NCBI GenBank assembly: GCA_965644295.1
Contig: CBFFRP010000379.1
Location: 1-64,000 of the forward strand
Reading direction: 5' to 3'
Length of the DNA: 64,000 nucleotides
Source: Paraphysomonas bandaiensis
Taxonomy: Eukaryota; Protista; Chrysophyceae
Shown here: in pieces, positions 10,240-29,017 of the stretch
How the letters are laid out: every line of letters starts with the position of its first letter
How positions within the stretch are numbered: the first letter of the stretch is position 1
Made by a program: the position numbers and the translations under genes
The notes under the pieces: model-generated
What the model was told of the DNA's origin: nothing
Seen by the model: the letters and a program-made list of their open reading frames with translations, nothing else
The model's database searches: none

Positions 10240-11028
10240 AGCGGCATATAAACAACGTGTTGTGGCACAAACGTTGTGGTGTGTGTGGTCTATTCAGTAG
10301 ACATGGAAGTATATGCGATATTGCATCGGATAATTATGCTAATCTCTGTGTAGCTGAATTCTGATAACATAGTAGCATGCATGCTTTTGTCATCTTAATA
10401 GTAAAACAACTTCACATTAAGTACAGTATGGTGACCACTGTGCGCGGGATGTGTGCCCTTTATCCCACGTAAATATTATACATCCACTTCGATAGTCATA
10501 TCAATACTTAACTAACTGAACGTAATTCTTAACCAATGCTGTAATTATAAATTTGCAAGGGTGAGGCTTATTAATAAATACTGAATTCTGAAAGTTAAAA
10601 GTGACTTTTTTGTAGCTTATTAGCCATAAAATTCAGTGTTCAGTGTGGATCACAGAATTGAAATTGCACAGAAAAGGCCTCTACAGTGATGAGGCGGGAT
10701 TACTGAATAATGAGTTTATCACTGAAAATAGATACCATAATATAATACCATATACATGAACTTTATAGTTTAAAGCGCTAACTCTAACACACTGTAATAA
10801 GTAAGTCATCCACTTACACATAGCCCAGGGCCTGGTAACCATTAACGATATCATGCCACTCTACAGCTACTTTTTAAGGTTCCAGGAACTAAACTGCCAT
10901 TAAAGATTTCCAGGTCCTGACATTGCTATATTATTGTAGGTTTAGAAGCATGTCATTTTAACAAACCGACAGTATACTTCATATTAGCATTTGACATATT
11001 TTGGGTGGTGGAATAACTTAAGTAGCTG

Positions 11029-11430
11029 AAAAAAAAAGCAGGATGGTTTATACGCTCCGCTTGCAGGCAATGGGGTCCATTAAATCGAATCCCTAAAACC
11101 AATCCTATATTATAATTTTTAAAAAGTAATATAATTCATTTTTATATAACATTTTAATAATTCATTTTATATATATCTTTTTTATAATATATTATATATT
11201 AAGGGTTGAGGGTTTAGGGTAATTTTCAAGAGAAATAAAAATAGATAAAATAGTTATAATTATTATAATATGAGAAAGGGCATCAACCCTATACTCAACA
11301 CCAGCAGTAAAATAATATAGAGAGAATAGCAGTAGATTTTAAGATTGAAGTCCGCAGTAGCTACAAACGAGCTCGCCACCATACCTACTACACTATCTTA
11401 TCGTACCCACACAATACCCTCATCACTGTC
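11029..11430 (+). repeat. Left terminal inverted repeat
   Basis: Reverse complement of 28298-28699; identical by eye over the outer 388 bp, 2 mismatches in the inner 14 bp; the first two A may belong to the TSD. Confidence 0.97.
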
Positions 11431-11560
11431 TACTTATGTACTATGTCTTTAAGTCATATCGATATTTCAAAAAGGTTTAAAGAATTGATTTGTTGATTTC
11501 ATACCTAAAGTATTTCAACTTAAATAACACTTAAGTAATAAGCAATATAGATAATTATAA

Positions 11561-12097
11561 ATGAAAAACGAAATTGAACGTTGGACTGTCATACATGAAT
11601 ATGATGATTATGAAGTATCAAATCACGGAAGAGTTAAAAATAGCACAACTGGAAAGATGTTAAAGCTTGGAAAAAACAAACATGGATATCAGCTAGTCAG
11701 TTTAAACAAGAATGGAAATTACAAAACTTTGCGAGTTCATAGATTAGTTGCCGGTGCATTTTTGGACAATACACATAACAAGCCCTGTATTGATCACATT
11801 GATGGAGTTCGAGACAACAACAATTTATGTAATCTACGATACGCTTCATGTGCAGAGAACACTTACAATAAAAATGTCGTTGACAAAAGAAATACATCAG
11901 GATACACTGGCGTAAATTGGCATTCCTATGAAAAGAAATGGAAAGCACGAATAAAACATAAAGGAAATGATATAGAAATCGGACTGTATGATACAATCGA
12001 AGATGCTATTAAAGCAAGATGTAAAAAAGCAATTGAATTATTCGGAGACTTTGCAAACAAAGCAGACAAAGAATCTTATATGAAATATTTTATGTAA
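11561..12097 (+). CDS. NUMOD4-HNH-AP2 homing-type endonuclease
   Basis: YEVSNHGRVKN (NUMOD4); VHRLVA..F, IDHIDGVRDNNNLCNLR (HNH); NTSGYTGV.W...KWKARI....IGLY (AP2). Confidence 0.9.
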   Translation: MKNEIERWTVIHEYDDYEVSNHGRVKNSTTGKMLKLGKNKHGYQLVSLNKNGNYKTLRVHRLVAGAFLDNTHNKPCIDHIDGVRDNNNLCNLRYASCAENTYNKNVVDKRNTSGYTGVNWHSYEKKWKARIKHKGNDIEIGLYDTIEDAIKARCKKAIELFGDFANKADKESYMKYFM

Positions 12098-12258
12098 ACA
12101 AAGAAGGCAAGGAGCACAGTATAAGATCGCATCATTGCAATGAACGGACATTGCAACAGATTCAGTTTTAATATGAAATCTTCAATGGGCATTCTTGATA
12201 TCTTCAGTTTTTAGTGTTGTGTCCTGCATGTCAGCTTCAACTTCAAGAAAACGTCAGG

Positions 12259-12493
12259 TCACTCATTTGAGTGAAAACACCCCTCTGTTCACTGTTTTTG
12301 AGTGAAAAACACCCCTCTGTTCACTCATTTGGAGTGAAAAACACCTCTCTGTTCACTGTTTTTGAGTGAAAAACACCCCTCTGTTCACTGGTTTTGAGTG
12401 AAAAACACCCCTCTGTTCACTGGTTTTGAGTGAGGTGTCACTCATTTTGAGCGAAAACCCCCCCTGTTCACTGGTTTTGAGTGAAAAAACACC
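12259..12493. repeat. Tandem array of ~32-bp units with palindromic TCACT-N-GAGTGA core (8 cores)
   Basis: GAGTGA/GAGCGA cores at 12269, 12300, 12332, 12364, 12396, 12428, 12449, 12479. Confidence 0.9.
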
Positions 12494-12510
12494 AATTTCG
12501 AGAGAATAAA

Positions 12511-12699
12511 TTAAACGAACTTTAGGCCGTTGATTTTATTGTTCGCCTTTTTTCGTGCTCCGTTTACCTTCTTGTTGACTTTACTCTGAGCGCCACTGAC
12601 CTTCTTGTTCAGTTTCTTCTGGGCGCCGCTAACCTTCTTGTTAAGTTTATTCTGAGCGCCTGTAATCTTCTTATTGAATTTTGTTTTCAATCTGTCCAT
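12511..12699 (-). CDS. Small very basic repeat protein, putative DNA-condensing core protein
   Basis: 62 aa of 11-residue repeats K(L/V)NKKVSGAQK; function inferred from composition. Confidence 0.6.
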   Translation of the reverse strand: MDRLKTKFNKKITGAQNKLNKKVSGAQKKLNKKVSGAQSKVNKKVNGARKKANNKINGLKFV

Positions 12700-12743
12700 A
12701 GTAATAATATACCTATATATATTTTTCTCACGGAATATATATA

Positions 12744-13697
12744 ATGAAACCATTTTATACAGATGAAACATTCACGTATGTTGTCACCACAGCGAATAAA
12801 ACATCAGGAGATAATGCTTCATGCGAGATACCCATGCTCGCCTTGCTACCTTCAGATGTAGAATACTTTATATGTGTCCCCTTGTACTTTCAGTCCACAA
12901 GTAATTTGTTCTCTATTCCTTCGTCATCGGCTGTAATACTGGAGGCCAAAGACTTTGTAGAGATTGGATGTTCAACACACAAGACATCATCATTCAAAGC
13001 AGTAACTCCACCATTATTCGGAAGTGATGGAGGTTTGCATCGTTTATCCTTAGTCAATAATGTTAGTCAAATGAGGTATGTTGTTCGAAATTTCAACAAT
13101 AAAACCATTCAGTTTACATTTCGTAATGCTACAGGAATTGGTTTTCCCCAAAATGTTACAGCTCAAGGAGGGTGGGCTAAACAATGGATTTTACACCTGT
13201 CCTTAACACCTATAAGACAACACTCACCTTGTAAGTATATAATAAGCAATAAACATAAATCATTTACATACACCATTACAAATAAAGGTGCTGATGGTTC
13301 TGCAAATGATTGTTACATTACACTACCACCAATACATGACAATTATAATAGATACTTTGTTGATGTCATTGACTTTAGTGTAGATAATTCAACAATAGAC
13401 ACTGGTTCAGTAAGATACATAAACTTGTACTCTTTCAACTGGGCAGAAAATGGTTATGGAGGATATAACGATCAAACAGACAGAATGATTGTGTGCAGTC
13501 CATATATTAGAAATGCCAATGAACCTTCATTATATAGCGGAGATGGAGCAGTATTTATGATAAGCAATATGAAGCAATCTAGAAGAGTAAGGTTTAAAAT
13601 GTATGAAGCTACCCAAACAGAAGTAGTAAGCGGTGATATAGATAGCGGTGCAACAACTTATTACTACATAACATGTAAAATAACGCCTATTGACTAG
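12744..13697 (+). CDS. Protein with two tandem penton-like single-jelly-roll domains
   Basis: Internal repeat TFTYVVTTANKTSGDNASC / SFTYTITNKGADGSANDC, ending LSLTPI / CKITPI; motif order parallels the penton. Confidence 0.65.
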   Translation: MKPFYTDETFTYVVTTANKTSGDNASCEIPMLALLPSDVEYFICVPLYFQSTSNLFSIPSSSAVILEAKDFVEIGCSTHKTSSFKAVTPPLFGSDGGLHRLSLVNNVSQMRYVVRNFNNKTIQFTFRNATGIGFPQNVTAQGGWAKQWILHLSLTPIRQHSPCKYIISNKHKSFTYTITNKGADGSANDCYITLPPIHDNYNRYFVDVIDFSVDNSTIDTGSVRYINLYSFNWAENGYGGYNDQTDRMIVCSPYIRNANEPSLYSGDGAVFMISNMKQSRRVRFKMYEATQTEVVSGDIDSGATTYYYITCKITPID

Positions 13698-13722
13698 TAA
13701 TAATTTCTATTATAAATATATA

Positions 13723-14178
13723 ATGCAAAATACTCAAAGTTTTACGTATGTTATTTCATCGGCAAATGCTGCTTCAGGAGATGCTGAGAACTGTTACATA
13801 GATTTAGACCCATTGCCACAAAACTATGAATGGTATAGTGTTCAATGCACTGGATTTATTATGAATTGTGAATCATTAGCTGCTGGTCATCCTCAGTATG
13901 TTTTATTGGTAGCTGATGATTTGGCAGAAGATGGATATTATCAAGGATTTGATGGTAACCAATGTGTTTTATCATATCTTAATACAGATGACACTATATC
14001 ACAAATGACATCAGGAGAAGGGTCTTTGTTTAAAGTAAAGAACTTTAGACAAAAAAGAAGAATACATTTTAGTTTGTATGAACCAGATTTAACACCTATG
14101 GCTGGTGTTGTAGATGACTCTGCAACAACATATTGGTGCATATCATTGCTGTTTACACCTATTTTAGAGTTGAACTAA
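13723..14178 (+). CDS. Single penton-like domain protein (151 aa)
   Basis: SFTYVISSANAASGDAENC...YSVQ...RIHFSLYE...YWCISLLFTPI; paralog of both halves of the upstream gene. Confidence 0.65.
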   Translation: MQNTQSFTYVISSANAASGDAENCYIDLDPLPQNYEWYSVQCTGFIMNCESLAAGHPQYVLLVADDLAEDGYYQGFDGNQCVLSYLNTDDTISQMTSGEGSLFKVKNFRQKRRIHFSLYEPDLTPMAGVVDDSATTYWCISLLFTPILELN

Positions 14179-15780
14179 ATCAATATGCGTTTTCCAAAAT
14201 ATTGAACCTGATCCTACAGTTTGGAAATTATTATATGTATGAATTTCAAATGTCCAATTATCGGCAACATCTCCAACAGTAAATATAAGCGGTGCTAGAG
14301 TACAACCTACAGTACTAACACTTCCACGATTTGCATCCCATACACCCGGACCATAAAGAGTTGCTCTTTCTAGCGTTCCATTTTTCTTAACTAATACACG
14401 CGCGCGTATATCTGTCCATGATTTAATACCCATGATTTCAAAAGAAACTTGTAGCATGTATCGTCCTGTATACTGAATGTAACCTGATGAATCAATCATA
14501 TTTGAATCACCGCCTGTAGGTGTTGTACTCAATTCCGAAGATGTCATATAATGTCCACCGCTAGATGTTTGATAAGTTGTATTATAAGCCATGGATGAGA
14601 AATAAGTTACTGGATCATCAATTTCTTCCCAATAACAATTTTTTTTGCTAGTTAATGTATCCAAATCCGTTCTATCAGTAGCTGTGAACGCTGTTGTTTG
14701 AATGGTAGCATCTGGATATTCTACTTTTGTATAACAATTGATGTGATCACATCTTATTTCATCAATTGCGCCTCCTCCACCAGCTTTTAATAATGTATTG
14801 ACTGGGAAAGTCCATTCATTTGAACTTCTTGTTATATCATCTAATAATGTGCTATAATCAGAACTAAACGCTTTTGTTTGTTCGCTAGCATCTGAAAATT
14901 CTAGAACACCGCCCGATCCTGTGATTTCAAACCTACAATTACTTCCTGTCATTCTGAATGTGCTTCCTGTACCTGACACAGTATGTAATCCATAACTTTT
15001 ATTTAGTAATAGATCGCTTGAAATAGTTAAATCATCATATCCACCACCGGTATAAGACAAAGGTGTTATAGTTGATTCAATAGTTGCAATGTCAGATGTG
15101 TTTGTGGATATGTTTGATGTGTTAGTCGCTATATTGGTTGTATTGGTTGATATGTTAGATGTATTGGTTGATATGTTTGATGTGTTAGTCGCTATGTTAG
15201 ATGTATTGGTTGATATGTTGGTTGTGTTAGTAGATATATTTGATGTATTGGTTGCTATATTTGATTCGGCTGTTGAGAGGTCTACATCAATACTCGCAAT
15301 ATCTGCCGTGTTTGTTGCTATATCACTTGTATTGGTTGCTATGTTAGTTGCGTTTGTTGCTATATCACTTGTATTAGTGGCTATATTTGTGGTGTTTGTG
15401 GATATATTTGATGTATTGGTTGTAATATTGGTGGTGTTTGTGGATATATTTGATGTATTGGTTGCTATATTGGTGGTGTTTGTGGATATATTTGATGTAT
15501 TAGTTGATATGTTATTTGCATTCGTTGTAATTTGAGTTTGTGCGTTTGAAGTGAGTCCATCAATATAACTCAGTTCAACATCTGTTATAGTTGTGCCATT
15601 TGCGACAATACTAGCCCCCGATTGCATTGTTATATCAGTATCAATAATAATGTTACTCGTTTCAAGTGTGTCTAAATATATATTATCACTTGTTAAACTG
15701 CCAGTCGTTATTTCGTCCGCTTTTATTGTTTGTAATCCATTCAAAGATGGTATGTTTAATGATGTATAGCCATTATTCAT
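14164..15780 (-). CDS. Putative virion fibre/spike with trimeric coiled-coil stalk
   Basis: About 20 heptads IxTNTxN, LSYIDGLTSNAQTQI motif, two (F/Y)xDxxxQTxAF fibre-type motifs, beta-rich C-terminal head; adjacent to the MCP gene. Confidence 0.75.
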   Translation of the reverse strand: MNNGYTSLNIPSLNGLQTIKADEITTGSLTSDNIYLDTLETSNIIIDTDITMQSGASIVANGTTITDVELSYIDGLTSNAQTQITTNANNISTNTSNISTNTTNIATNTSNISTNTTNITTNTSNISTNTTNIATNTSDIATNATNIATNTSDIATNTADIASIDVDLSTAESNIATNTSNISTNTTNISTNTSNIATNTSNISTNTSNISTNTTNIATNTSNISTNTSDIATIESTITPLSYTGGGYDDLTISSDLLLNKSYGLHTVSGTGSTFRMTGSNCRFEITGSGGVLEFSDASEQTKAFSSDYSTLLDDITRSSNEWTFPVNTLLKAGGGGAIDEIRCDHINCYTKVEYPDATIQTTAFTATDRTDLDTLTSKKNCYWEEIDDPVTYFSSMAYNTTYQTSSGGHYMTSSELSTTPTGGDSNMIDSSGYIQYTGRYMLQVSFEIMGIKSWTDIRARVLVKKNGTLERATLYGPGVWDANRGSVSTVGCTLAPLIFTVGDVADNWTFEIHTYNNFQTVGSGSIFWKTHIDLVQL

Positions 15781-15828: not shown

Positions 15829-17244
15829 TCAGAATTGAGTGTAGCAAACCCCGGCCTCGCACACCATAACAGCGTCATACATAGCGTAAGTATCAAATCT
15901 GACGGATGGAGTTGATGAATTAGCGTTATACGTACAGTGCCAGAACACATCATCATTAGAAGTATTATATCCTGAGTAGATAGAATCTTTATCAGCATTT
16001 GAATATGTTTCAAGATCCATACCAACAAAGAAAGCCTCAGAACTGGCGGTATCATCTACATAATTCTCTGTTTCAGCATTAACCGTAGGGACATCAACAT
16101 CATAATCTCCTAAATCAATATTTGGTTCGTGATTGATATCTGACACGCTACCTATAGCCTTTATAGCTTCAATGAAAAACTCAGGGACAGTCTCAGGAGC
16201 TTTTGATGGTACAACCTTAGAGCCCAATCTCAGCGTATAAGAAGCAAGATTATAGTGACAAGAACCCATAGGGAAATAAGTAATAGAACCGTCGGCATTT
16301 TCTCTTTGAGTCATAAAAAGAGATTTCAAGCTGTTGAATTTAGCTGGCACAGGTATAGATACCTGGGTCGTTGCATTATTTAAAGTGGCATTGTACACGT
16401 AGTTCCTCCATGCAGGAACCACCCACTCAAGTCTTCCACCAGGTGCGGAATTATTGATTATATTCATTGCTTCACTTCCAAGCTCCATAAATTGAGCAAT
16501 AAATTCACAGTTATTTACTTTAAAAGAGGACAATGCAAGTTCAGAACAAATGAATTTCGCTGGGCTAGAAACTAGTTGAAGTTCAAGTCTAAGAGGTGCG
16601 CTTGTCATTGCAAAGAGAGGAATGTATTTATCAGAAAGAGAACCAATAATAGATAAAAGGTTAATGGTGTAAGTTCTAGTAAGAGTATCTCCCGCGGCGG
16701 CGATATCTGCAAACTGTGTTGTTTGTCCATCATCAATAAGTCTTTCACCTGAGTTAATAGTAAAAACTTGGTTGGTTGCCCCTTGAATTTTTGTTAATAG
16801 AGTACCTGCATCTGCTACTGTTGAATCAGTCACATCACAAAAGGCATCTCTCGTTAACCCAGCCATAATGTTTAACTTACCTTTAGCAGAATCTCCAGAT
16901 TGTTGTAATGACATAAGCATGCCTACAAGATTTCCGTAATTATCAATATCTTCAAGTAATTGAGAACCATGATAAAGTCTAAGTCTTTGAATGCAACCGT
17001 GAGCTCCAGCTCTATCTAAACGGGCATAGGCATTTGCTCCAGCTCCATTAGTTACTGTCAAGTCAAATTTTAAGAGTGATTCAGACCCTGCCATGACGAG
17101 ATTCTGAGCTGTGGGGATATTAATGATGATAGTCTGCCCATCTAAGTAGTTTCCAACGCCATTCAATGGTTGTATGTGAGTGGAAAAGTTACGTGCGTAA
17201 GCGCTTGATCGCTTGTTAGTGTATAATAGGTTTTTAGGAATCAA
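15829..17244 (-). CDS. Major capsid protein (double jelly roll, PLV type); begins with TTG
   Basis: 471 aa, beta-rich; IPKNL...SAYARN...PLNG, IQRLRLYHGSQLLEDIDNYG, KYIPLFAM, FFVGMDLETY; clustered with penton and ATPase. Confidence 0.88.
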   Translation of the reverse strand: MIPKNLLYTNKRSSAYARNFSTHIQPLNGVGNYLDGQTIIINIPTAQNLVMAGSESLLKFDLTVTNGAGANAYARLDRAGAHGCIQRLRLYHGSQLLEDIDNYGNLVGMLMSLQQSGDSAKGKLNIMAGLTRDAFCDVTDSTVADAGTLLTKIQGATNQVFTINSGERLIDDGQTTQFADIAAAGDTLTRTYTINLLSIIGSLSDKYIPLFAMTSAPLRLELQLVSSPAKFICSELALSSFKVNNCEFIAQFMELGSEAMNIINNSAPGGRLEWVVPAWRNYVYNATLNNATTQVSIPVPAKFNSLKSLFMTQRENADGSITYFPMGSCHYNLASYTLRLGSKVVPSKAPETVPEFFIEAIKAIGSVSDINHEPNIDLGDYDVDVPTVNAETENYVDDTASSEAFFVGMDLETYSNADKDSIYSGYNTSNDDVFWHCTYNANSSTPSVRFDTYAMYDAVMVCEAGVCYTQF

Positions 17245-17304: not shown

Positions 17305-17919
17305 TTATACTGTGTTGTTATTCATGTATTCTATATGTTTTTTGGTTTTAATATGCTTATGCATAGAATCTCTTCGCATAACTTGGCCACAACTACAGGT
17401 AACTTCTTGAGCACATCGTTTTTCATGTGGTTTTTTTTTATCTTTTCTGGGTTTTTTTATTCCCTTATGTTTGTTTGTTTTCAGATGCTTGTGAATAGAA
17501 TCTCTTCGCATTACAAGGCCACAAGTACAGGTAACTTCTTCAGCGCCACGTTTATTTTTGGCGTCCTTTCTGTCCTGTCTTTGATTTCTTATGCGTTCGT
17601 ATTCCTTTTTACTCTCCACGGTATGAACAACGTTTTTGATTTTATTAACACACTCATTATTTTGAATGTAGTACCCTTCTCTCGCATGTAATTCATCTTT
17701 ACTGTTACATGGATAGTTTTCTACTAAATAAATAGCACAGTCGGGTTCATCAAGTATTTTAAAGGATGAAACGAAGTGATCTTTACCTTTTTTGTAACCG
17801 TTATAATTGTTGCGATGCTTTGCTAATCTTCTGGCTAGCGTGGGTTCACATGTTGATCCGTAATAAGTTTTACCACCTCCAACAATCTTGTAAATTTTTC
17901 CTTTCTGATAATCAGGCAT
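17305..17919 (-). CDS. GIY-YIG endonuclease with two C-terminal Zn-finger-like repeats
   Basis: GKIYKI...YYGST...LARRLAKH...ELHAREGYYI; twice VTCxCGxVMRRDSxHKHxKTxKH. Confidence 0.85.
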   Translation of the reverse strand: MPDYQKGKIYKIVGGGKTYYGSTCEPTLARRLAKHRNNYNGYKKGKDHFVSSFKILDEPDCAIYLVENYPCNSKDELHAREGYYIQNNECVNKIKNVVHTVESKKEYERIRNQRQDRKDAKNKRGAEEVTCTCGLVMRRDSIHKHLKTNKHKGIKKPRKDKKKPHEKRCAQEVTCSCGQVMRRDSMHKHIKTKKHIEYMNNNTV

Positions 17920-17988: not shown

Positions 17989-18414
17989 TTATGCGAATCC
18001 ATCTTCATCTGCGGTTGCTTGTGCGATCTTTTTGCGCACATTGAACTTTTCGAGATCATTAGCATGTTTGTTGGCATGTTTAAGAGCTTTGTTACTTGCG
18101 TTCTTATATTTGTGTAAGGCCTTATCCCCTTTGTCAAGCCCTTTTCTAGCACCATGCAAAGCAGTCGATAATGCATTAACTCCGGGGACGGAACCAGCTC
18201 CAGCATCAACGGCGGCGCCTAGTACAGCGTCGGCTATATCTGCCCCTTTTCTAACGTTGTGCAAAACTTTTGACCCAGTATTAACTGCTTTACGGTTGAT
18301 CTTTTGTGCTTTTTGAAGTACGTCGTGAGATTTGTGCCCTAATTGATGAGCCTTCTTATCTATTTTGTGACCAAGTTTTCTAACACCTCGATCAAACTTC
18401 TTACCTAGTTTCAT
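17989..18414 (-). CDS. Basic protein with central Gly/Ala-rich segment, putative core protein
   Basis: LG(K/H)K repeats at the N-terminus, ADAVLGAAVDAGAGSVPG; lies in the structural gene cluster. Confidence 0.6.
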   Translation of the reverse strand: MKLGKKFDRGVRKLGHKIDKKAHQLGHKSHDVLQKAQKINRKAVNTGSKVLHNVRKGADIADAVLGAAVDAGAGSVPGVNALSTALHGARKGLDKGDKALHKYKNASNKALKHANKHANDLEKFNVRKKIAQATADEDGFA

Positions 18415-18438: not shown

Positions 18439-19173
18439 TTATTCTATATCAAGCTCTAGAGTTAAAGACCAATGAACTCCATTCAGATCAAGCACATCAT
18501 CATCTTGATCCGTGAGTTTAACATGTAAATTTGTTAAATTATGAACATTATAGATCATATTACGAACATTGTATATATTAGAGTAACTGATCATACTGTG
18601 ATGGGAAGAATCTACTGGAATACTGCATAATATATTACTTTTATTAGGTGTTGAATTGTTAATATTATTGATTTGAAAGTTATCAGATGTAACATAAACA
18701 TTTCTAATTGTGAATAAATTAATTGATATGGTACTTGTAAGCACTTGTGACGTTGACGAGTATGTTGTATCATCTGTAAAACCAAGAACTTCAAAACAAG
18801 TACTATTCGATTCAAATGTAAAATCATATGTACTATGTGAAAAGGTTAATTTGTTTGTTTTGCTGTTATATGTGATTGTTAAAGCGGGTATGCCAGTTGT
18901 AATTGCTGTTATCAAGGTATTAACGTTATAATTTCCTTCTGTAATAGTTAATGTTTGTACTCCACCACCATTGACTGTATATTTTAAAGTGTTATTAATT
19001 GAACTAATGTTATAAAATGAATAAGGTATCATCGCCGTTTGAACCGAACAAAATATCTTTCTATGTTTTGGTATGTTGATAACAGGTAAATGAAATATAC
19101 AATCTGATGTATTACCTGATATATATCTATTTGCACTTTTGCTATTTAAAAAGATGCACAATTTATCGCTCAT
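18439..19173 (-). CDS. Minor capsid protein (penton)
   Basis: IFLNSK...IPYSFYNI...EGNYN...LHVKLTDQD..LDLNGVHWSLTLEL, typical of PLV/Polinton pentons; next to the ATPase. Confidence 0.85.
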   Translation of the reverse strand: MSDKLCIFLNSKSANRYISGNTSDCIFHLPVINIPKHRKIFCSVQTAMIPYSFYNISSINNTLKYTVNGGGVQTLTITEGNYNVNTLITAITTGIPALTITYNSKTNKLTFSHSTYDFTFESNSTCFEVLGFTDDTTYSSTSQVLTSTISINLFTIRNVYVTSDNFQINNINNSTPNKSNILCSIPVDSSHHSMISYSNIYNVRNMIYNVHNLTNLHVKLTDQDDDVLDLNGVHWSLTLELDIE

Positions 19174-19507
19174 CTATATTATTACAATCATATATTTTTC
19201 TATTCATTAACTCCTCTAATGGGGAATCACTGATATTTTCAGCTATAGTTTCAAGTACTTGCTGCCATCCTGGAATGTGAAAACCTGTCCCATTGGGCAT
19301 ATTTTTTAATACATGACGTATACCTTGTCTTTTAAAAGAATCGTTGTAGTGTAACATATTTATATCTATAACTTCATCTAAGCGTTTTGGTCTGACCTGA
19401 TAATCAAGTTCATCCGGTAGTTCATCCTCTGAGTCGGATGATAAATAATACTGCGTTTCAGAATCATATTGCAATTCGGTTGAATCATTTTCTGTATCAC
19501 TGTTCAT
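19163..19507 (-). CDS. Acidic hypothetical protein
   Basis: 114-aa ORF with TATATA-ATG leader between the ATPase and penton. Confidence 0.65.
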   Translation of the reverse strand: MNSDTENDSTELQYDSETQYYLSSDSEDELPDELDYQVRPKRLDEVIDINMLHYNDSFKRQGIRHVLKNMPNGTGFHIPGWQQVLETIAENISDSPLEELMNRKIYDCNNIDER

Positions 19508-20316: not shown

Positions 20317-20871
20317 ATGGTAGAACCCGAAGAATATATAGAAGAATCAATTCCTTTGACAAAACCAAAAAGACAGGTCAAACAACTCGCAACCATACCA
20401 GAGGAGCCTGTTAACACACCCCAAGCACCTATTCAGTCCACTCCTGTAAAAAAGAAAAGAGTGATGACAAAGCCTAAAACACAAGCCCAACTACAAGCAT
20501 TTGAAAAGGCTAGACAAAAAAGAGCAGAGAATGCTGCAAAGAGGCAACAAGAAAAGGAATTACATTACGCTCAATTATTAGCCAAACATCAAGAAGAGCA
20601 ATCAGTAACAAAGACAGATCCCGAACCAAAACCAACACCAAGGCCTGTTGTTAAACGAGCTCCAAGGCAAAAAATAATATATGATGATTCAGAATCAGAT
20701 GAAGAGGTTATAGTTGTTAAAAGACCATCAAAAAGAAAACCAAAAAAGAAAACAATTGTGGTCGAATCATCAGAATCTGAATCAGAATCAGAAGATGAAC
20801 AAGTATCTATACAAAGACAACCCGCTCCACAAAGACATGTGACTTTTAATTCAGATGATTATTTCGCATAA
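20317..20871 (+). CDS. Hypothetical K/E/S-rich protein
   Basis: 184-aa ORF with TATATA-ATG leader; low complexity. Confidence 0.7.
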   Translation: MVEPEEYIEESIPLTKPKRQVKQLATIPEEPVNTPQAPIQSTPVKKKRVMTKPKTQAQLQAFEKARQKRAENAAKRQQEKELHYAQLLAKHQEEQSVTKTDPEPKPTPRPVVKRAPRQKIIYDDSESDEEVIVVKRPSKRKPKKKTIVVESSESESESEDEQVSIQRQPAPQRHVTFNSDDYFA

Positions 20872-20900
20872 TATTATCTTTCACTATTATATAAATACTA

Positions 20901-21965
20901 ATGAAGGAGAAGAAAATCTATTTATCTCTTGACGACTTACATAAACTTTATGGTATTGCACCAGATTTGATTTTAAAAAGAAAAAGAACAAAGAAAAAGC
21001 GCAAAGCTAAAGGCAAAAAGAAAACTAATTTTGGTACTGGTGTAAATAAGCAATTTGGGGGTGGTGGTGGTGGACCGGCCACTGCAGGTGTGGGTGCTGT
21101 ACATAGCTCAACTATTGACAGAAGAGAGATTGATATATTGCGAGGTCAGTTAAATGAAGCTAAAAACAACCCAAAGAATCCCGCCAATGAAGGTGTTTTG
21201 AGACTTGAAAATGTTCCAGAAGAGTTAAAAGAGACTTTCAAATTTGCAAAATTAGCTAATGACGGGTATGCGACTGGAAATATTAAAGTCTCTAAATCTC
21301 CAGCTGGAAATTTAATTATGGGTCCAACATCTCAAAAACAAAAAACTGCGCAACGTAGAAGAGCCATTGATATATCCAGCAAGGCAGATAATACCATCAA
21401 CCCCGCACCACCAATATCTACAAGCAATGATTTGATGTATACACAGCCATTAGAATTTAAATCAAATGATCAGGTGGAAGAATTAGACGATGGTGTTGAG
21501 GATTTGCCTTTAGAGCCACAAACTAAATTAGCTAAACCAAAAGGCAGAACTCAAAAACAGAAAGAAGCAACAAAACAATTAGTTCAACGTAGTAAAGACA
21601 AGAAAAGCGAAAGATTGAACAGAGAAGGTATGGAGGCAGAGGACTATGATGCCGATAAAGCAATTAGAGCCAAAAATCACTATGAAAAAAGACACATGAG
21701 ACAAGGATTAGAAGGCTTGTTTGTCAATATGGAACCCATTACCGGACAAATGAGTCGAACAAGACGAACAGAAATGAATATAAAACAAAAAGATGAAATA
21801 GAGGATGAGAACATGCATAAACTAAGAACAAAGCATTATGTCCGAACTCATAAAATCAAGCCACCAAGCACACCGGTACCAGCAGAATATTTTACTCCCA
21901 GAAAAGAAAATGAATTTGGCTGGGATGAATGGCGCAGTGATATCTCAGATGATGGTTTCGCTTAA
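20901..21965 (+). CDS. Hypothetical basic protein with K-rich tract and poly-Gly
   Basis: 354-aa intact ORF. Confidence 0.7.
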   Translation: MKEKKIYLSLDDLHKLYGIAPDLILKRKRTKKKRKAKGKKKTNFGTGVNKQFGGGGGGPATAGVGAVHSSTIDRREIDILRGQLNEAKNNPKNPANEGVLRLENVPEELKETFKFAKLANDGYATGNIKVSKSPAGNLIMGPTSQKQKTAQRRRAIDISSKADNTINPAPPISTSNDLMYTQPLEFKSNDQVEELDDGVEDLPLEPQTKLAKPKGRTQKQKEATKQLVQRSKDKKSERLNREGMEAEDYDADKAIRAKNHYEKRHMRQGLEGLFVNMEPITGQMSRTRRTEMNIKQKDEIEDENMHKLRTKHYVRTHKIKPPSTPVPAEYFTPRKENEFGWDEWRSDISDDGFA

Positions 21966-22004
21966 ATATAAAATGTTTAAATATTTTGTGTCACAATTAT
22001 ATAA

Positions 22005-22508
22005 ATGAGAAAAGTAGTTATTAAAGACAACGACAACAACAGACCTCTTGGAGTTGAAGAAACTAAAGAGATAGAAACTGAAGTTAAACGTGAATGTAGT
22101 TTTAGACATCGATCGATTCCAGACAAAAAACTATTTAATGTTGAGTTAAATGGACTTTCTGACAAAATTAAAGAAATTAAACTCGAAAATCAGCAGTACG
22201 AATTAGTTACTAAAATTCAATCTGTTTTAGATCTCTTTGATCCTGATTCAAATAAATACAATGAACAAATTCTATTATTTACTTGTCAAGCAGTTGAAAA
22301 TTTTATCACAAAACCAAAATCTGGTGATAGAAAACTGGCGGTTGTAGTTGAAGCAGTTAAAAAATATTTCAATAATGACATAGAATTGATTGTCAAAATG
22401 GTTGAGATATTACTACCACGAATTAAAAAAATGAATTTCATTAGACGTAATTGGAAAAGAGTAGCACGTTTTTTTTGCGGTCTGCAGCCGAGCGAGCCGT
22501 CGATATAG
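22005..22508 (+). CDS. Hypothetical protein; alternative -1 frame C-terminus to 22564
   Basis: 167-aa ORF; T8 run at 22469-22476. Confidence 0.7.
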   Translation: MRKVVIKDNDNNRPLGVEETKEIETEVKRECSFRHRSIPDKKLFNVELNGLSDKIKEIKLENQQYELVTKIQSVLDLFDPDSNKYNEQILLFTCQAVENFITKPKSGDRKLAVVVEAVKKYFNNDIELIVKMVEILLPRIKKMNFIRRNWKRVARFFCGLQPSEPSI

Positions 22509-22587
22509 CTATAACAAAAGCTTTTAAAATATTACTATTACCTATGATACTTGCTGTTTTATAATTTTATTGATTATTAATATAATA

Positions 22588-22854
22588 ATGAATAAAGAGA
22601 AACTTAAACAGTATAATCATGAATATTACTTAAAGAATAGAGACACGTTATTGATTCGAAATAGAATTTACTATTTCAATAATAAAGCTAAATGCAATGA
22701 GTATGCTAGAAACTATTATCATACTAAAATTAAAACACTTAAAGAGAACAATGAATATAAGAAATGGGTCCACACAAAAAAGGATACCAAAAGGAAAAAA
22801 CAGAAAAAATATAAAGTTATCGATGATGATACATTTATAATAAATTTTACTTAA
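22588..22854 (+). CDS. Hypothetical Y/K/N-rich helical protein
   Basis: YNHEYYLKNR-type repeats common in viral DNA-binding proteins. Confidence 0.55.
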   Translation: MNKEKLKQYNHEYYLKNRDTLLIRNRIYYFNNKAKCNEYARNYYHTKIKTLKENNEYKKWVHTKKDTKRKKQKKYKVIDDDTFIINFT

Positions 22855-23267
22855 AGATTTCTATGTTTACTTGAACATTTATGTTTAGTTTTTTCAGATT
22901 CTGGAAATGATTCTTGACATCCCCAACAATACATCAATGGATCAGTTTCACGAGAAGGTCGTTTACTGACCGCGCCTCTTGAACCAGCAGGGAGCTGATG
23001 CTTCAGCGAGTCGTCTTGTTTAGATTTCTTGATGTCTTCTAATTCTTGTTTTATTGCTTCTAATTCGCTTGAAACATTTAACTTTGCTTGTCTTCTCTCT
23101 GCCGTTGTCATGCATACTTTTGATGCTTGATGTTTCTTCATATTTTGATGCGATACTATTCTGCCACATTTTAAACATTCTTCTTTTTCAAATAGCTTTG
23201 CACATATTGCGCTTTTCTTTTCAGCGTAGTATTTTTTATTATACTCTCTTCTTGAATCTTTGTTCAT
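22851..23267 (-). CDS. Zn-finger hypothetical protein
   Basis: CLKCG...H....VC and CWGC...HKC; ACTTAA 36 nt upstream. Confidence 0.65.
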   Translation of the reverse strand: MNKDSRREYNKKYYAEKKSAICAKLFEKEECLKCGRIVSHQNMKKHQASKVCMTTAERRQAKLNVSSELEAIKQELEDIKKSKQDDSLKHQLPAGSRGAVSKRPSRETDPLMYCWGCQESFPESEKTKHKCSSKHRNL

Positions 23268-23357: not shown

Positions 23358-24404
23358 ATGAATGATCTTATTAAAAAATATGATATCGATGAAACATTAA
23401 CAAGACCAAGTAAACAAACCAAGAAGAAAAGATATAATCGAATAAAAGATAATATACCACTTAAAGAAAATTATAACTTTATGGCGGATGTGTTGCATTT
23501 ACCAAAAGATAAAAAAGGATATCAATATTTATTAGTTGTTGTTGATTTGGCAACTGATGAGTTTGATATGGAACCAATGAAAACAGAAAACTCTGATGAA
23601 ACTTTAAAAGCAATAAAGGTGATATTTCATCGTAATCATCTTAATAAACCGTACGCTTCTATTCGAACAGATGGCGGTGCATCATTTAAAAAAGGTTTTG
23701 CAAAATATTTGTACGACGAAAGTATATTACATAACGTTGCATTAGCGGGACGACATAAACAAATGTCGGCAGTGGAGAGTTTAAATAGAACATTAGGTAG
23801 ATTTTTCAATGGTTATATGAACAGCATTGAGTTAAAAACTGGAAAAATTTATAGAGAATGGACTGATATAGTTGATAGGCTAAGAATAGATTTGAATAAA
23901 CTAAGAAAAAAAGATGTGTCTGATATTGACTTGGCAACACATAAGTATCCTGTTCCAGACACAACCAAATCAAAACCTAAATATAATGTGGGTGACTTTG
24001 TGTATCGAAAATTAGACAAACCCAAAAATGCTTTAAATGAAACTATTAATTCTGATGTGTTCCGAGAAGGTGACTTCCGCTTTGACCCTATACCTGTACA
24101 AATTAAACAAATATTGTATTATCCTGGAAAAGTTACATACAGATATATGTTAAGTGGTATTAAAAATGCATCCTTTACAGAAGATGAACTAATGCCTGCA
24201 CCTGATGCCGAAGAAGAACAAGTTGAAATTAAAAAGATTCTTGATAAGCGATTTTTTGATGGCGAAAATCACTATCAAGTTTGGATGTATGGAGAGTTAA
24301 AAAAAGACGCGGGATGGTATGCTAAAAGTGATTTACTAAAAACTGTTGATAAAAAGTTATTAGATGATTTTGATAAAAGCATTAAGAAAAAGAAAAAACG
24401 TTAA
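23358..24404 (+). CDS. Retroviral-type (rve) DDE integrase with C-terminal chromodomain-like region
   Basis: ADVLHLP..YLLVVVD, IRTDGGASF, VESLNRTL (D,D,E); IKKILDKR...HYQVWMYG....GW. Confidence 0.92.
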   Translation: MNDLIKKYDIDETLTRPSKQTKKKRYNRIKDNIPLKENYNFMADVLHLPKDKKGYQYLLVVVDLATDEFDMEPMKTENSDETLKAIKVIFHRNHLNKPYASIRTDGGASFKKGFAKYLYDESILHNVALAGRHKQMSAVESLNRTLGRFFNGYMNSIELKTGKIYREWTDIVDRLRIDLNKLRKKDVSDIDLATHKYPVPDTTKSKPKYNVGDFVYRKLDKPKNALNETINSDVFREGDFRFDPIPVQIKQILYYPGKVTYRYMLSGIKNASFTEDELMPAPDAEEEQVEIKKILDKRFFDGENHYQVWMYGELKKDAGWYAKSDLLKTVDKKLLDDFDKSIKKKKKR

Positions 24405-25651
24405 CAACATTCTTCAATATGTGTTTTTATGTCCTTGTATTTAAGTCGCTCGTCACACTTTGGACATATATGATTGTATCCATTTACATGTCTCCATTCA
24501 ATCATACCCGAAGTTTTATCTTCTCGCAATAGATTGGGTATATCTAACTTTGGATCTTTCTTAAAAGTAACGTTATCGGTGTGAATACGAATGACGTTAT
24601 CAATATCCTTTAATGCTACTTCTGCTATTTTGTTTCTTGCATATGAAAGCAAAAACGGAAGTAGTCTAATATTGTATTTAAAAGGATTATTCGAATCTAA
24701 AAGTTTGTAATTCTCTTCATCGTTACTATGTGCTGACATATACTTATCCTGTACAATATAATCGCATTCTTTTGTATATCCCCAGTCATAACCTTCATTT
24801 TCTAATTCATCATATGATTTATATATCATATTGTACTGCGTTAACGTTCCCCATAGCGATGACATCAAATGTTTTACAAGTTTATTGTTGGGATACAACT
24901 TTTTTAACTGAATTAAACGATTGTACCATTCTCCAAATATTTCACTAGCTTTTACTAAATCTTTTGTTCTGTATATGTATGCGTTTGGTTTATCATCAAC
25001 AATTAACTCAATATTTACATCAAATTTCTTTTTGTATTTCATTGCATGTTTTAGAGATATATGAGTATATGTATGTTTTGGAGAAAATGAAAATATCTTT
25101 TTAAAGTTTTTATTATCAGATGTAATTTTAACTCTGTATAATCCGTATTTAAGTTTAGAACGTTTTTTTAACTTCTTTAAGTATTTTTCTTTTCCTTTCT
25201 TTGTTGGTATTATAAAATTATCATCTATCAATAAAGATGGATAAAATCCACTAAAATCGTATCCATATGAATTAAATACTCCCGGTTCGCAAAACTGTAA
25301 ACCTGCATTATAACAATCTTGAAAGTATCCATTTTCTATTTTTTTAATCCTGTCATGGTGTTCATATTTTCCTTTACAATATTGCATAAAGACACATTTA
25401 ACAGCGCCCAAGTGTGAATGAAATTTTTTGTAATCAATTGACAAGTTTTTAGTAAATCTCATCTCTCTACACCACGCCCTGAAATCTTTACCATACTGTT
25501 TTATTCCTTCATCTGATGCTTCGTATCCTTTAAACAATTGATACGCATATTCTAATTTCATACATTTCTCATGTGACATGTCTGAAAAGATGTAGTTCTT
25601 AACATCTAAAACTCTGTACATGGCACTATTCATTTTATAATAAAAATACAT
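24401..25651 (-). CDS. Short divergent family-B DNA polymerase lacking an exonuclease domain
   Basis: YNAG (YxGG/A), YDFSGFYPS (motif A), KHLMSSLWG (motif B), IHTDNV (motif C); C-terminal CPKC...H...C. Confidence 0.8.
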   Translation of the reverse strand: MYFYYKMNSAMYRVLDVKNYIFSDMSHEKCMKLEYAYQLFKGYEASDEGIKQYGKDFRAWCREMRFTKNLSIDYKKFHSHLGAVKCVFMQYCKGKYEHHDRIKKIENGYFQDCYNAGLQFCEPGVFNSYGYDFSGFYPSLLIDDNFIIPTKKGKEKYLKKLKKRSKLKYGLYRVKITSDNKNFKKIFSFSPKHTYTHISLKHAMKYKKKFDVNIELIVDDKPNAYIYRTKDLVKASEIFGEWYNRLIQLKKLYPNNKLVKHLMSSLWGTLTQYNMIYKSYDELENEGYDWGYTKECDYIVQDKYMSAHSNDEENYKLLDSNNPFKYNIRLLPFLLSYARNKIAEVALKDIDNVIRIHTDNVTFKKDPKLDIPNLLREDKTSGMIEWRHVNGYNHICPKCDERLKYKDIKTHIEECC

Positions 25652-25696: not shown

Positions 25697-26050
25697 TTAA
25701 ACAAAATTATCCTCAATATCATCGGGTACAAAGGCAGTAATTTGCAATTGTGAGAACTTTGAAAACTTATCTGTGTCTTTGACTCTATTTGCATAATAAT
25801 CTTCTTCATCATCAACATTGAGGTCACTATAAAATCCTTTGAGTGTGCTCCATCTGGCTGCGTTTAAAGCGCGCACCATAAATAGTTTATTTGGATCTGA
25901 ATTTTGCAATCCTTGTACAATATCGCGTACATCTTGAGCAGAGATATTATTCTTTTTGTCATTTCTGTACAATTGTATTGTTCGTTCTTTTCCGTGCTTC
26001 ACAGTTTTCTCTTTGATAATCTTTTTAGTGTAAACAGACTTTTTTACCAT
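25697..26050 (-). CDS. Hypothetical protein in the replication module
   Basis: 117-aa ORF with ACTTAA 37 nt upstream. Confidence 0.65.
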   Translation of the reverse strand: MVKKSVYTKKIIKEKTVKHGKERTIQLYRNDKKNNISAQDVRDIVQGLQNSDPNKLFMVRALNAARWSTLKGFYSDLNVDDEEDYYANRVKDTDKFSKFSQLQITAFVPDDIEDNFV

Positions 26051-26092
26051 TATATATAACTAAACTATATATAATAATTTTTTAAGTACTTT

Positions 26093-27694
26093 TTAATTTA
26101 GTAAATCAATAATTTCATTTAATTCTTCTTTTTCAATTTTTTGTTGTTTAAATATATTTGTTTTAAATGTTTCGGGTATGGGTTCATCGTCATTGTCAGT
26201 ATCATATTCAAAAGTAACTTTCTTAACTTTGACCATCTTAGATTTCTTTAGTTTAACCTCTTCGGGTTCTCTTAATCTATACAATTCATCTTGAAGCTTT
26301 TTTATTTTTTCTTGTAATTTCATATAATCTTCTGCTCTAACATACTGTGCTTTATCATCTGATTTAATGTATTTTGGAACAGGTTCATTTACTTCTTCAA
26401 CACCGTCGGTTAGTGTATAATACTTCTCTGAGATCAAATAATTTTCTAATTCTTTAATATTGCATCGGTACGATCTGCCTTTTTTAGTATTTATTTTCTT
26501 TATGACTTCGTGCTGTTTCATTTCTAGTCCAAACTTTGTAATATTAGTTTTGTATTCAAAGCCATTTTGTTTTAGAAACAAACAATATCTATTGTAGAAG
26601 TCTGTTGCACTTGCTTTTAACTCTTCTGTTTTGTCTAATTCTTCTTGCATGACATTAACTAAAAATTGCGCTGTAATTGGAATATTTCTCTCTTGTAAGT
26701 CATTATAGTAAGATGTTATAGGTCTCTCTTTTTGAAATGACTTTACTTTAATTTTTCTATTCAATAAGTAATCATAAAATGCTCTGTCATATATTCCGCT
26801 GTTTATTTCGTCATGTAAATTGTTAAAATATTCTTCTGAATGCTTTTTCGATGGAATTTTTCTAGCAGTAAAACGCCTATCGTTATGTTCTATTTTAATG
26901 CTGTCAAAGTTGTTAGTTAAAACTACCCAATTTATATGATTTCTCTCGTGCCTTGTTTTTTCTTTCTTTATTCTAATTGAATTTATATCTCTTGTAATTG
27001 CGTTTTTAATTGCCTCAATTATTTCATCCGTCTTTGCTCTTTTACTTTCATTTAGTACGATTAAGCATTTGTGTGATATATCTTCATTAAAGTTCCCACC
27101 AATCAACATATCAATATGATCCTCATTTAAATAGTATTCTGGTCCCAATATTTTAATACCAAAATGATTTAACCCTGTATCTTTACCATCTCCTGGTTTA
27201 GATTGTAGTGACATTGAAACATCTGTTTTATTACCTGTCTGTACTATATATGCAAAATAATCCATCGCATAGTCAAACATTTCATCACCAAATAGGTACT
27301 GATAATGTTTAAACATTAAACTATTTTCAAATTTAAGATCAGTCTTTTTTAATTTTGAAGCTCTCCATCCGTTCCATTGATTGTATTGATCATTTGATAC
27401 TTCCTTACATGGCTCAAATACAATCTCTTTATATGTTCTTATACAAGGGTCTCGCATCCAATCGTTGACAAACATACAATGTTTTTTCTCAGACACTTCT
27501 GTTCCGTCCTTCTTACTTTTTGTTTCAATCTTTGTATAAAATAAGTTTTCATACAATGTTAACATTTCGTGCTTGGATCTCATTACAATCTTTTCATCAA
27601 CAATTTGAACGTATGTAACGGGGTTAATAACTTTGAAGTGAGTCTTTTCAAAAGTAACTTTCAATTCTTTGTAAGAAATTTCTTTACTTGTCAT
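26093..27694 (-). CDS. SF3 (D5-like) helicase/NTPase without an evident primase domain
   Basis: Walker A-like SKPGDGKDT, Walker B LIVLNE, motif C VVLTNN, NDRRF. Confidence 0.85.
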   Translation of the reverse strand: MTSKEISYKELKVTFEKTHFKVINPVTYVQIVDEKIVMRSKHEMLTLYENLFYTKIETKSKKDGTEVSEKKHCMFVNDWMRDPCIRTYKEIVFEPCKEVSNDQYNQWNGWRASKLKKTDLKFENSLMFKHYQYLFGDEMFDYAMDYFAYIVQTGNKTDVSMSLQSKPGDGKDTGLNHFGIKILGPEYYLNEDHIDMLIGGNFNEDISHKCLIVLNESKRAKTDEIIEAIKNAITRDINSIRIKKEKTRHERNHINWVVLTNNFDSIKIEHNDRRFTARKIPSKKHSEEYFNNLHDEINSGIYDRAFYDYLLNRKIKVKSFQKERPITSYYNDLQERNIPITAQFLVNVMQEELDKTEELKASATDFYNRYCLFLKQNGFEYKTNITKFGLEMKQHEVIKKINTKKGRSYRCNIKELENYLISEKYYTLTDGVEEVNEPVPKYIKSDDKAQYVRAEDYMKLQEKIKKLQDELYRLREPEEVKLKKSKMVKVKKVTFEYDTDNDDEPIPETFKTNIFKQQKIEKEELNEIIDLLN

Positions 27695-27750
27695 TTATAT
27701 ATAATACTATATATAAATATTTCCTTAAGTATTTTTAAATTAAATTAAAA

Positions 27751-28197
27751 TTAAAAACCAAATTTCATTTGTCGTTGTTTTGCACGATATGCTTCTTGAT
27801 ACTGTCTTATTTTTTCCTTATTCTTTTCTCTGTATTCTTTACTGGACGTAGCTATCCTTTCTTTATTCTTTTCTCTGTATTCTTTACTGGACGTAGCTAT
27901 CCTTTCTTTATTCTTTTCTCTGTATTCTTTACTGGACGTAGCTATCTTTTCTTTATTCTTTTCTCTGTATTCTTTACTTGATTCAGCTATCTTTTCTTTA
28001 TTTAGCTTTCTATACTGTTTATTGTAATCTTTCTTTTTCTCTTTATTTTCCCCAAACTTTTTGACAAGTGTCTCGCAATTTAGATGATCACTGTATACAA
28101 ACCAACATTTCATATTTGAATCCCACTGGGCGCCTAACAGTTTAGCATCATCTTTGAGTTCGAAATCGACATTAAGAAATATCCTGAAAGTTTTCAT
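27751..28197 (-). CDS. DUF5710-like domain protein with 15-aa tandem repeats
   Basis: FLNVDFELKDDAKLLGAQWD....WFV; repeats SKEYREKNKERIATS (45 bp). Confidence 0.75.
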   Translation of the reverse strand: MKTFRIFLNVDFELKDDAKLLGAQWDSNMKCWFVYSDHLNCETLVKKFGENKEKKKDYNKQYRKLNKEKIAESSKEYREKNKEKIATSSKEYREKNKERIATSSKEYREKNKERIATSSKEYREKNKEKIRQYQEAYRAKQRQMKFGF

Positions 28198-28297
28198 TTA
28201 CTTTATAATATTACTGTAGTGCCTTATTCTTAAGTAGTTTTAATATAAAAAATACTTTAAGTACATATTACCTGATGTCTGACCATGAAACATTTTC

Positions 28298-28699
28298 GAC
28301 AGTGATGACGCTATTGTGTGGGTACGATAAGATAGTGTAGTAGGTATGGTGGCGAGCTCGTTTGTAGCTACTGCGGACTTCAATCTTAAAATCTACTGCT
28401 ATTCTCTCTATATTATTTTACTGCTGGTGTTGAGTATAGGGTTGATGCCCTTTCTCATATTATAATAATTATAACTATTTTATCTATTTTTATTTCTCTT
28501 GAAAATTACCCTAAACCCTCAACCCTTAATATATAATATATTATAAAAAAGATATATATAAAATGAATTATTAAAATGTTATATAAAAATGAATTATATT
28601 ACTTTTTAAAAATTATAATATAGGATTGGTTTTAGGGATTCGATTTAATGGACCCCATTGCCTGCAAGCGGAGCGTATAAACCATCCTGCTTTTTTTTT
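28298..28699 (-). repeat. Right terminal inverted repeat
   Basis: Reverse complement of 11029-11430; followed by GCTGAA. Confidence 0.97.
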
Positions 28700-29017
28700 G
28701 CTGAACTTGAATTCGCACAGTAATCAACTAGTAAAATTTTAAGCAACAATATGTATGTCTCATCATTCATTGATAGTGATTACTACTAATCAATATTATC
28801 TAAAGGTTGGGACTCACAACTCCCTCAGAGGCACCAATTCAAACTCAACTTGAAAGAGTCTGTGGCTCACAAATCCACTGTAGTCTGACCTCGTGTGGAC
28901 TACGTAATTTTGAAAATGCAGTGGTGAGTATACTTCAACTATTATTTGCAGCGGCCAAACAGATGCTCCAAGCGTCCGTGGGCAGCTCCCACACATATAT
29001 ATAGCAATAGGTATTTT

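Follow-up and report, generated by a model that had tools for sequence, protein, structure and literature searches.

What kind of element interrupts the genome of the chrysophyte Paraphysomonas bandaiensis on contig CBFFRP010000379.1 (assembly GCA_965644295.1), and does it still carry what a virus would need to leave it again? The first 64,000 nucleotides of this contig, referred to here as the window, contain an element of 17,671 bp (11029-28699) inserted in chromosomal sequence. A model's reading of the letters and open reading frames (ORFs), made without database searches and called the sequence-only reading below, had proposed an intact, recently integrated Polinton-like virus (PLV) with a full virion module. 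The computational analysis described here finds a complete, recently integrated PLV, in which the start of the capsid gene and the function of a small gene beside the polymerase require separate consideration.

Element boundaries and integration

The element is distinguished from its surroundings by base composition (32% GC versus 41% in the host flank), and 21 ORFs of at least 70 amino acids (aa) span 88% of it; these were picked from 31 listed ORFs by setting aside alternative-frame and flanking ones. The terminal inverted repeats (TIRs; 11029-11430 and 28298-28699) are 402 nt each, with two mismatches (11417 and 11419), both no more than 14 nt from the inner edge. The insertion lies about 790 bp beyond the last frame of an aldehyde dehydrogenase gene, and other eukaryotic neighbours include HVA22, CRAL-TRIO, WD40, PP2C and kinase-RNase genes.

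The letters at the junctions, GCTG followed by A9 on the left and T9 followed by GCTGAA on the right, are compatible with a target-site duplication (TSD) of 4 bp (termini A9/T9), 5 bp (A8/T9) or 6 bp (A7/T9). The empty allele described below cannot fix this length because all three options yield identical letters. Among further ends of this family, there are nine leading A in record 7 of sequencing run X1 and in runs X9 and X14, and eight in X12 (after a non-A base) and X1 record 6; none of the ends listed in the run contigs begins with seven, which favours a TSD of 4 or 5 bp over one of 6 bp. Contig starts are graph branch points, and the A counts are thus support, not proof, for this length. 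The endogenous mavirus-like elements (EMALEs) are described as having TSDs of mostly 3-5 bp and strain-specific insertion sites (PMC8547959).

Both junctions and the unoccupied site were read from Logan contigs of sequencing runs, not from long reads. In X1, a 5,374-nt contig passes from the host flank into the left TIR with 0 differences over 2,459 nt, and a 396-nt contig links the right flank and TIR; the depths of the two (41.9 and 37.4) are flank-like. No empty site is present among the seven X1 records at this locus. In X9 and X14, which come from one sample with a different organism code, a 434-nt contig of flank-like depth consists of the left flank, GCTGAA once, and the right flank from 28706. 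Compared with the window over about 2,390 nt, the flank in these runs has 10 differing letters and 20 gap positions. One isolate thus carries the element at a site that a close relative has unoccupied, and the insertion is therefore recent. No single contig in the run data covers the whole element. Runs containing the stretch derive from four coded organisms and from marine metagenomes, which points to a marine microbial eukaryote as the likely host.

The near-identical 402-bp TIRs and the recent integration anticipated by the sequence-only reading are therefore both present, and the two host-virus junctions on which it staked its case are spanned by the X1 contigs. The flanking GCTGAA duplication that it described as 6 or 4 bp is also real, but the longer form is now less favoured than 4-5 bp.

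The virion module and the start of the capsid gene

The major capsid protein (MCP) is predicted to adopt a double jelly-roll fold, and its model (mean pLDDT 90) has the capsids of SGIV, an iridovirus, and PBCV-1 as best structural matches (E about 1e-16). The mavirus and Sputnik MCP folds, at 10% identity, rank below these capsids of nucleocytoplasmic large DNA viruses (NCLDVs), and the protein has no Pfam match to the virophage MCP family. It is full length, is 98% identical to the protein record P0001, and has 413 homologues among 7,996 scored candidates. At the DNA level, a pattern of its N-terminus retrieves 0 viral contigs and 14 prokaryotic stretches, none matching any ORF of the element. 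The penton family profile matches PBCV-1 P1v1 (E 9e-4), and the fibre call is based on 21-nt (7-aa) repeats and gene position. A maturation protease is not recognisable by Pfam, by tblastn with a protease-like ORF from the related locus L041, or by catalytic motif; several ORFs in the element carry no family assignment.

These results bear on the gene content claimed earlier. MCP, penton, A32 ATPase, rve integrase, family B polymerase (PolB) and superfamily 3 (SF3) helicase are each confirmed by computation, the fibre follows from its repeats and position, the double jelly roll expected at 15829-17244 is recovered in the fold model, and the adenovirus-type protease reported as missing is indeed not found. 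Two descriptions need amending. The virus was labelled "intact", with about 20 uninterrupted ORFs, where 21 are counted here; the MCP frame starts at TTG, and intactness depends on use of that start. Similarly, the family B polymerase is present, but as a short form with no recognisable exonuclease or N-terminal domains.

The MCP frame reads TTG-ATT-CCT where homologues show M-I/L-P. Its first in-frame methionine is residue 51, which is preceded by two out-of-frame ATGs, and a start there would remove residues 1-50, including two predicted strands. Start codons were compared at the DNA level in the five related loci whose match begins at residue 1: two have TTG and three have ATG. The TTG loci, L008 and L009, encode MCPs 75% identical to that of the window and share with it the 80 nt upstream of the gene. 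Table S4 of PMC7805220 gives the type of their samples as viral metagenome, in rows for other contigs of those samples. More distant loci have an ATG start placed one or two codons farther upstream. The start codon cannot be read from protein records because gene callers write a TTG start as Met; for example, P0005 and the L008 MCP agree at 453 of 454 residues, the sole difference being Met for the TTG codon. Since two lineages share TTG at this one position, a tolerated UUG start is a likelier explanation than a random lesion, although two lineages are few. The UUG start has about an even chance of being functional. A non-AUG start in such viruses was not found in the literature searched, where only a review on RNA viruses surfaced.

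The polymerase and a candidate terminal protein

Given near-zero sequence matches, PolB is identified by its predicted fold and not by its sequence. The window ORF has no Pfam match, its profile gives 0 matches to PDB sequences, and DNA_pol_B_2 is matched by one of 112 family members. In the model (pLDDT 96), the best fold match is the phi29 polymerase (Z 17.7-18.9, root-mean-square deviation 4.6, 339 aligned residues), with the next-best entry at Z 9.3. The fold aligns over 339-351 of the roughly 570 phi29 polymerase residues with motifs A-C conserved, and of the predicted catalytic residues D132 and K260 are found in 112/112 family members and D359 in 110/112. PolB is about 150 aa shorter than the phi29 enzyme, with some 125 residues before motif A, and on the model it seems to be without proofreading, retaining at most a remnant exonuclease. 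In a homologue search covering lengths of 228-728 aa, an N-terminal extension of at least 80 aa is absent in 109 of 111 homologues and present in 2.

Each of the six PolB loci from IMG/VR has a gene of 109-168 aa immediately upstream of PolB, and rve faces PolB from downstream; L039 carries this PolB module plus the same MCP family. The window member encodes 117 aa. Its family profile matches 553 clusters at E<=0.001, and the best 150 of these are all stand-alone proteins of 74-162 aa. Tyr85 is present in 150/150 of these, with acidic residues before it and G or N at +3 (Gly in 74/150), and it is the only invariant column in a 118-sequence alignment. No protein in which a terminal protein (TP) is fused to PolB occurs among the PolB homologues in the length range searched or among the best 150 of the 553 matches. 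PRD1-like TPs are described as having a linking Ser or Tyr ahead of the last strand, Gly or Pro nearby, and a four-strand, two-helix fold (PMC11071308). The conserved Tyr85 and nearby Gly agree with this residue pattern, their placement against secondary structure being read by eye.

Family profiles run against PDB and Pfam give just weak calmodulin-type noise or scattered single matches, and a predicted complex of PolB with the 117-aa protein scored 0.00, with alignments not used and the partner fold uncertain, a result that speaks neither for nor against their pairing. Conservation and gene order suggest that the 117-aa product is probably a stand-alone TP. The A-run termini would suit dAMP priming with slide-back of the phi29 kind. 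A split primer-polymerase layout with a bare palm PolB was not found described in the literature; supplements may already hold the element or annotate the small gene.

The helicase and a promoter-like motif

No primase domain is detected in the element, and the Pfam and PHROGs matches of the SF3 protein cover only the helicase part of primase-helicases. The motif ACTTAA occurs 32-38 nt upstream of 7 of the 21 ORFs, namely those for the HNH endonuclease, fibre, the ORF at 22851, PolB, the 117-aa protein, the SF3 helicase and the DUF5710 protein; in 5,000 shuffles the mean was 0.38 and the maximum 4. Across 13 related loci, 22 of 177 ORFs have it in front of them, and each of the six PolB loci has it before one or more replication genes. 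It is not found before the MCP, penton or ATPase genes. This distribution suggests that ACTTAA may be an early promoter of replication genes. The mimivirus-type AAAATTGA motif has just two occurrences in the element, which also lacks Pfam matches to RNA polymerases or transcription factors. The ACTTAA motif was not found in the papers searched, in which figure logos are not searchable.

A proposed life cycle and alternative explanations

This recently integrated, complete PLV was probably inserted into the chromosome by the rve-chromodomain integrase that it encodes. Its replication is likely to proceed on linear DNA with protein priming, for which the 117-aa product is the predicted separate, tyrosine-primed TP. 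The integrase, with its intact DDE triad, would have inserted linear viral DNA and left a short TSD. On induction, genes preceded by ACTTAA would be expressed first. The TP would be linked via Tyr85 to the first nucleotide and prime at both A-run ends, after which the short PolB could extend the primer while the SF3 helicase unwinds. Capsid protein would be made from the UUG start, and MCP, penton and fibre would form a protease-independent virion, filled by the A32 ATPase. By analogy with mavirus and Gezel-14T, the trigger for reactivation would most likely be giant-virus infection, and elements with the mavirus-type polymerase are reported to co-occur statistically with giant viruses (PMC13215967).

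Several points weigh against parts of this proposal. X1 may itself be the source sample. The Walker A motif of the SF3 helicase is KPGDGKD where relatives have G.GK[GS]. The ACTTAA motif and its position window were picked after the data had been viewed, and one of the genes it precedes encodes the fibre. The 117-aa protein matches no Pfam family or PDB chain, and its assignment draws on gene order, protein length, the part missing from PolB and a single invariant residue. L008 and L009 are 99.96% identical to each other and thus count as a single lineage, and the MCP begins with ATG in L010, L014 and L024, as it apparently does in one sibling contig from X9. The family thus varies in its use of TTG, and a capsid-null state of this copy is conceivable.

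The element may accordingly be a recent but capsid-defective copy, in which TTG is a lost start codon and capsid is supplied by siblings. The ATG-starting relatives, the loss of two predicted strands with a start at residue 51 and the occurrence of sibling copies in the same runs would fit such a copy. This reading seems rather unlikely given that a virus from viral-fraction samples with a 75%-identical MCP has TTG at this very position, and that the MCP is full length and 98% identical to P0001, with no other lesion seen. The small protein beside PolB, which lacks sequence or structure matches and seems too short for the helical extensions of the PRD1 and adenovirus stand-alone TPs, might instead be a processivity or single-strand binding factor, with priming by a different route; the single invariant Tyr among the best 150 of 553 homologues, a PolB with no fused TP and the lack of a detected primase domain make this unlikely. 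A nuclear virus that is autonomous of giant viruses, like TsV-N1, would be expected to encode a polymerase, a helicase and a full virion module, as this element does, and the rarity of the mimivirus-type motif is in keeping with it. Such autonomy is doubtful in view of the missing RNA polymerase and transcription factor matches in Pfam and the reported co-occurrence of this polymerase type with giant viruses (PMC13215967). Finally, an assembly artefact joining a free viral contig to host DNA would explain why no single contig covers the element and why the junctions come from contigs and not long reads, but it is extremely improbable, as both junctions have flank-like depth in X1, the element is bounded by a TSD, and there is an exact match to the empty allele.

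Beyond the integrated PLV with a separate TP, a wider proposal can be made, tentatively and with some doubt. The element may belong to a widespread aquatic PLV lineage with a bare palm polymerase and a free TP of about 110 aa (invariant Tyr, more than 550 clusters, no Pfam entry), in which the vOTU needed by the fused form was lost, ACTTAA is a promoter and, in part of the lineage, a UUG start throttles capsid production; the copy in the window would then be competent for reactivation.

Endogenous PLVs are common in protists, and one more is not news alone. With filled and empty alleles in related isolates, mobility and induction by a giant virus are open to direct testing. Should the 117-aa gene encode a TP, it would represent an independent TP-polymerase split with vOTU loss, beyond the scheme described in PMC11071308, in which TP is fused in eukaryotic pPolBs except those of adenoviruses and one coral polinton, and a large unannotated family would gain a name. 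A working UUG start in an MCP gene would have consequences for annotation, as callers restricted to ATG would take such capsids to be truncated. ACTTAA could serve as a handle for tracing the helper virus.

Other genes, sibling copies and the surrounding window

The features of the element are collected in Table 1.

Table 1. Coordinates of the element's features within the 64,000-nucleotide window.
Feature	Position	Strand	Remarks
Left TSD, GCTG	11025..11028	+	4 bp if A9/T9; 5 or 6 bp if left end A8 or A7; single GCTGAA in empty allele of X9/X14
Left TIR	11029..11430	+	Begins with A9; X5 sibling element diverges exactly after 11430
NUMOD4-HNH-AP2 endonuclease	11561..12097	+	Pfam; PHROGs E 7e-41
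32-nt tandem repeat array, intergenic	12266..12484		5.3 copies plus related 51-nt repeat
Small Lys-rich repeat protein	12511..12771	-	True start may lie further in; no family above cut-off
Two paralogous ORFs	12744..14178	+	317 aa (two domain copies) and 151 aa (one copy); also in relative L008
Fibre-like protein	14164..15780	-	538 aa; shaft of 7-aa (21-nt) repeats; N-terminus 61% identical to gene after MCP in L008/L009
Double jelly-roll MCP (predicted)	15829..17244	-	471 aa, TTG start; fold model
GIY-YIG-like endonuclease	17305..17919	-	No direct Pfam match; 39% identical to L040 ORF matching GIY-YIG (E 6e-6)
Conserved basic protein, candidate core protein	17989..18414	-	Between penton and MCP; homologues in 19 related loci
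Penton (minor capsid protein)	18439..19173	-	244 aa; DUF5901
Conserved acidic ORF	19163..19507	-	Between ATPase and penton; homologues in L009, L010, L039, L040
A32-like packaging ATPase	19527..20258	-	Pox_A32 E 3e-13; Walker A/B and Arg motif present
Five ORFs without family assignment	20317..23267		184, 354, 167, 88, 138 aa
rve integrase	23358..24404	+	D44/D106/E141; rve E 1e-6; weak C-terminal chromodomain (Chromo E 0.049)
Short phi29-type PolB (predicted)	24401..25651	-	416 aa; catalytic D132, K260, D359; without TP or vOTU domain
Candidate stand-alone terminal (primer) protein	25697..26050	-	117 aa; invariant Tyr85; putative function
Stand-alone SF3 helicase (DUF5906)	26093..27694	-	533 aa; Pfam, PHROGs
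DUF5710 protein	27751..28197	-	15-aa repeats
Right TIR	28298..28699	-	Terminates in T9
Right TSD, GCTG(AA)	28700..28705	+	Flank letters, empty allele

The repeat array contains an internal inverted repeat and is skipped in the X5 sibling, which joins 12217 to 12494; it could be a replication or packaging signal. The ORFs starting at 12744 and 13723 were considered as extra pentons, which is not supported, the profile match to penton being non-significant (probability 0.5%). Conserved counterparts of the 167-aa ORF (22005-22508) occur in 12 related loci.

Sibling copies of the element are visible only via run contigs. In these, the GIY-YIG-like gene is missing at its place in four of four runs, with joints from 17309 or 17295 to 17984, and in three of the four it appears on the opposite side of the MCP gene. 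Its presence on either side of that gene, or its absence, is as for a homing endonuclease. The X9 contigs of the element (window 8600-28290) have depths of 1,000-4,500 over most of its length versus 80 for the flank, though the site is empty in that run; this could reflect many copies or free replicating DNA, contig depth being no copy number. Two polyA metatranscriptome runs of one sample contain 41-43% of the sampled words, and five marine metagenome studies contain 54-59%; neither is taken as evidence of expression.

Elsewhere in the window, 3040-6025 is an AT-rich remnant of a second PLV-like element, with a penton gene that is 55% identical to that of the element and cut after residue 176. 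The remnant also includes several small ORFs, which show the same AT-rich pattern upstream, and it may end at a T-run near 6018-6024. A dispersed host repeat of about 100-140 nt occurs at 6026-6121, where it adjoins this remnant, and at 29049-29191, 29556-29637 and 61545-61640. Telomere-like G-rich repeats of the AGGGTT type are present at 11200-11220, inside the TIR, and at 5589-5663, in the second remnant. A 400-aa open frame at 3-1202 resembles, by eye, the C-terminal half of a retroelement integrase, with no significant Pfam match, and a long microsatellite of 8-nt period spans 35641-36250. In L041, a contig filed under a giant-virus metagenome-assembled genome, the same PolB, small gene and rve module lies beside a protease-like ORF and a different ATPase (L041:4067-4618 and L041:5263-6051).

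Comparison with known systems

The element is a PLV in the broad sense, as the sequence-only reading had concluded: it has a double jelly-roll MCP in the fold model, a penton, an A32-like ATPase and TIRs, its 17,671 bp fall within 15-40 kb, and no protease was found. It shares the lack of a maturation protease with Aquintoviricetes. It falls outside Virophaviricetes, which have a core cysteine protease, and outside Polintoviricetes, which have an adenovirus-type protease and a full TP-vOTU-EXO-PALM pPolB in place of the 416-aa form seen here. The phage collection contains no match to the element, and none of the related loci looked up in Table S4 of PMC7805220 is found there.

The closest correspondence in gene content is with pMVRE group 1, as described in PMC13215967: a truncated pPolB that retains the palm, a DUF5906 SF3 helicase (group 1-specific in that account), rve, a chromodomain (weak here, E 0.049), GIY-YIG, MCP and TIRs. 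The available part of that account does not mention a stand-alone TP, a TTG capsid start or the ACTTAA motif. The mavirus and EMALE systems of Cafeteria burkhardae are also similar in having a pPolB with remnant exonuclease and a separate S3H (PMC11071308), rve integration, and a short TSD, here probably 4-5 bp and there mostly 3-5 bp (PMC8547959). They differ in that mavirus is described as carrying TP-vOTU-PALM in one chain (PMC11071308), whereas the window element has no fused TP or vOTU and no maturation protease.

Aquintoviricetes PLVs (PgVV Gezel-14T, the TsV group and ochrophyte PLVs) resemble it in their MCP, penton and A32 ATPase without a protease, their 15-25 kb size and their endogenous state with TIRs. 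In contrast, Gezel-14T has TVpol and a tyrosine recombinase, and most PLVs lack pPolB and rve. Polintons/Mavericks (Polintoviricetes) and Gosseviruses share pPolB plus rve, TIRs, a TSD and a double jelly-roll capsid; the window element differs in its lack of a cysteine protease, its short PolB without TP-vOTU-EXO, its A/T-run termini and its TSD of probably 4-5 rather than 5-6 bp. A separate TP gene adjoining the polymerase, as proposed here, would have parallels in adenoviruses, PRD1 and one Stylophora polinton. The split cases named in PMC11071308, adenoviruses and this coral polinton, keep vOTU on pPolB, for which the PolB in the window has no room.

Capsid lineages have been documented to exchange replication modules (10.64898/2026.10.13.758929; 10.64898/2026.07.28.741278), an earlier count found both pPolB and rve in 28 PLVs and virophages (PMC7805220), and the polymerases of Ochromonas danica PLVs are reported as flanking those of the mavirus type (PMC12220804). 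Intact PLVs are likewise described as common in protist genomes (PMC10120064; PMC12220804). The element is thus of a known kind, a PLV with a mavirus-type replication-integration module, to which the probable pairing of a free TP and a bare palm polymerase, together with a capsid gene beginning at TTG and the ACTTAA motif, would add new features.

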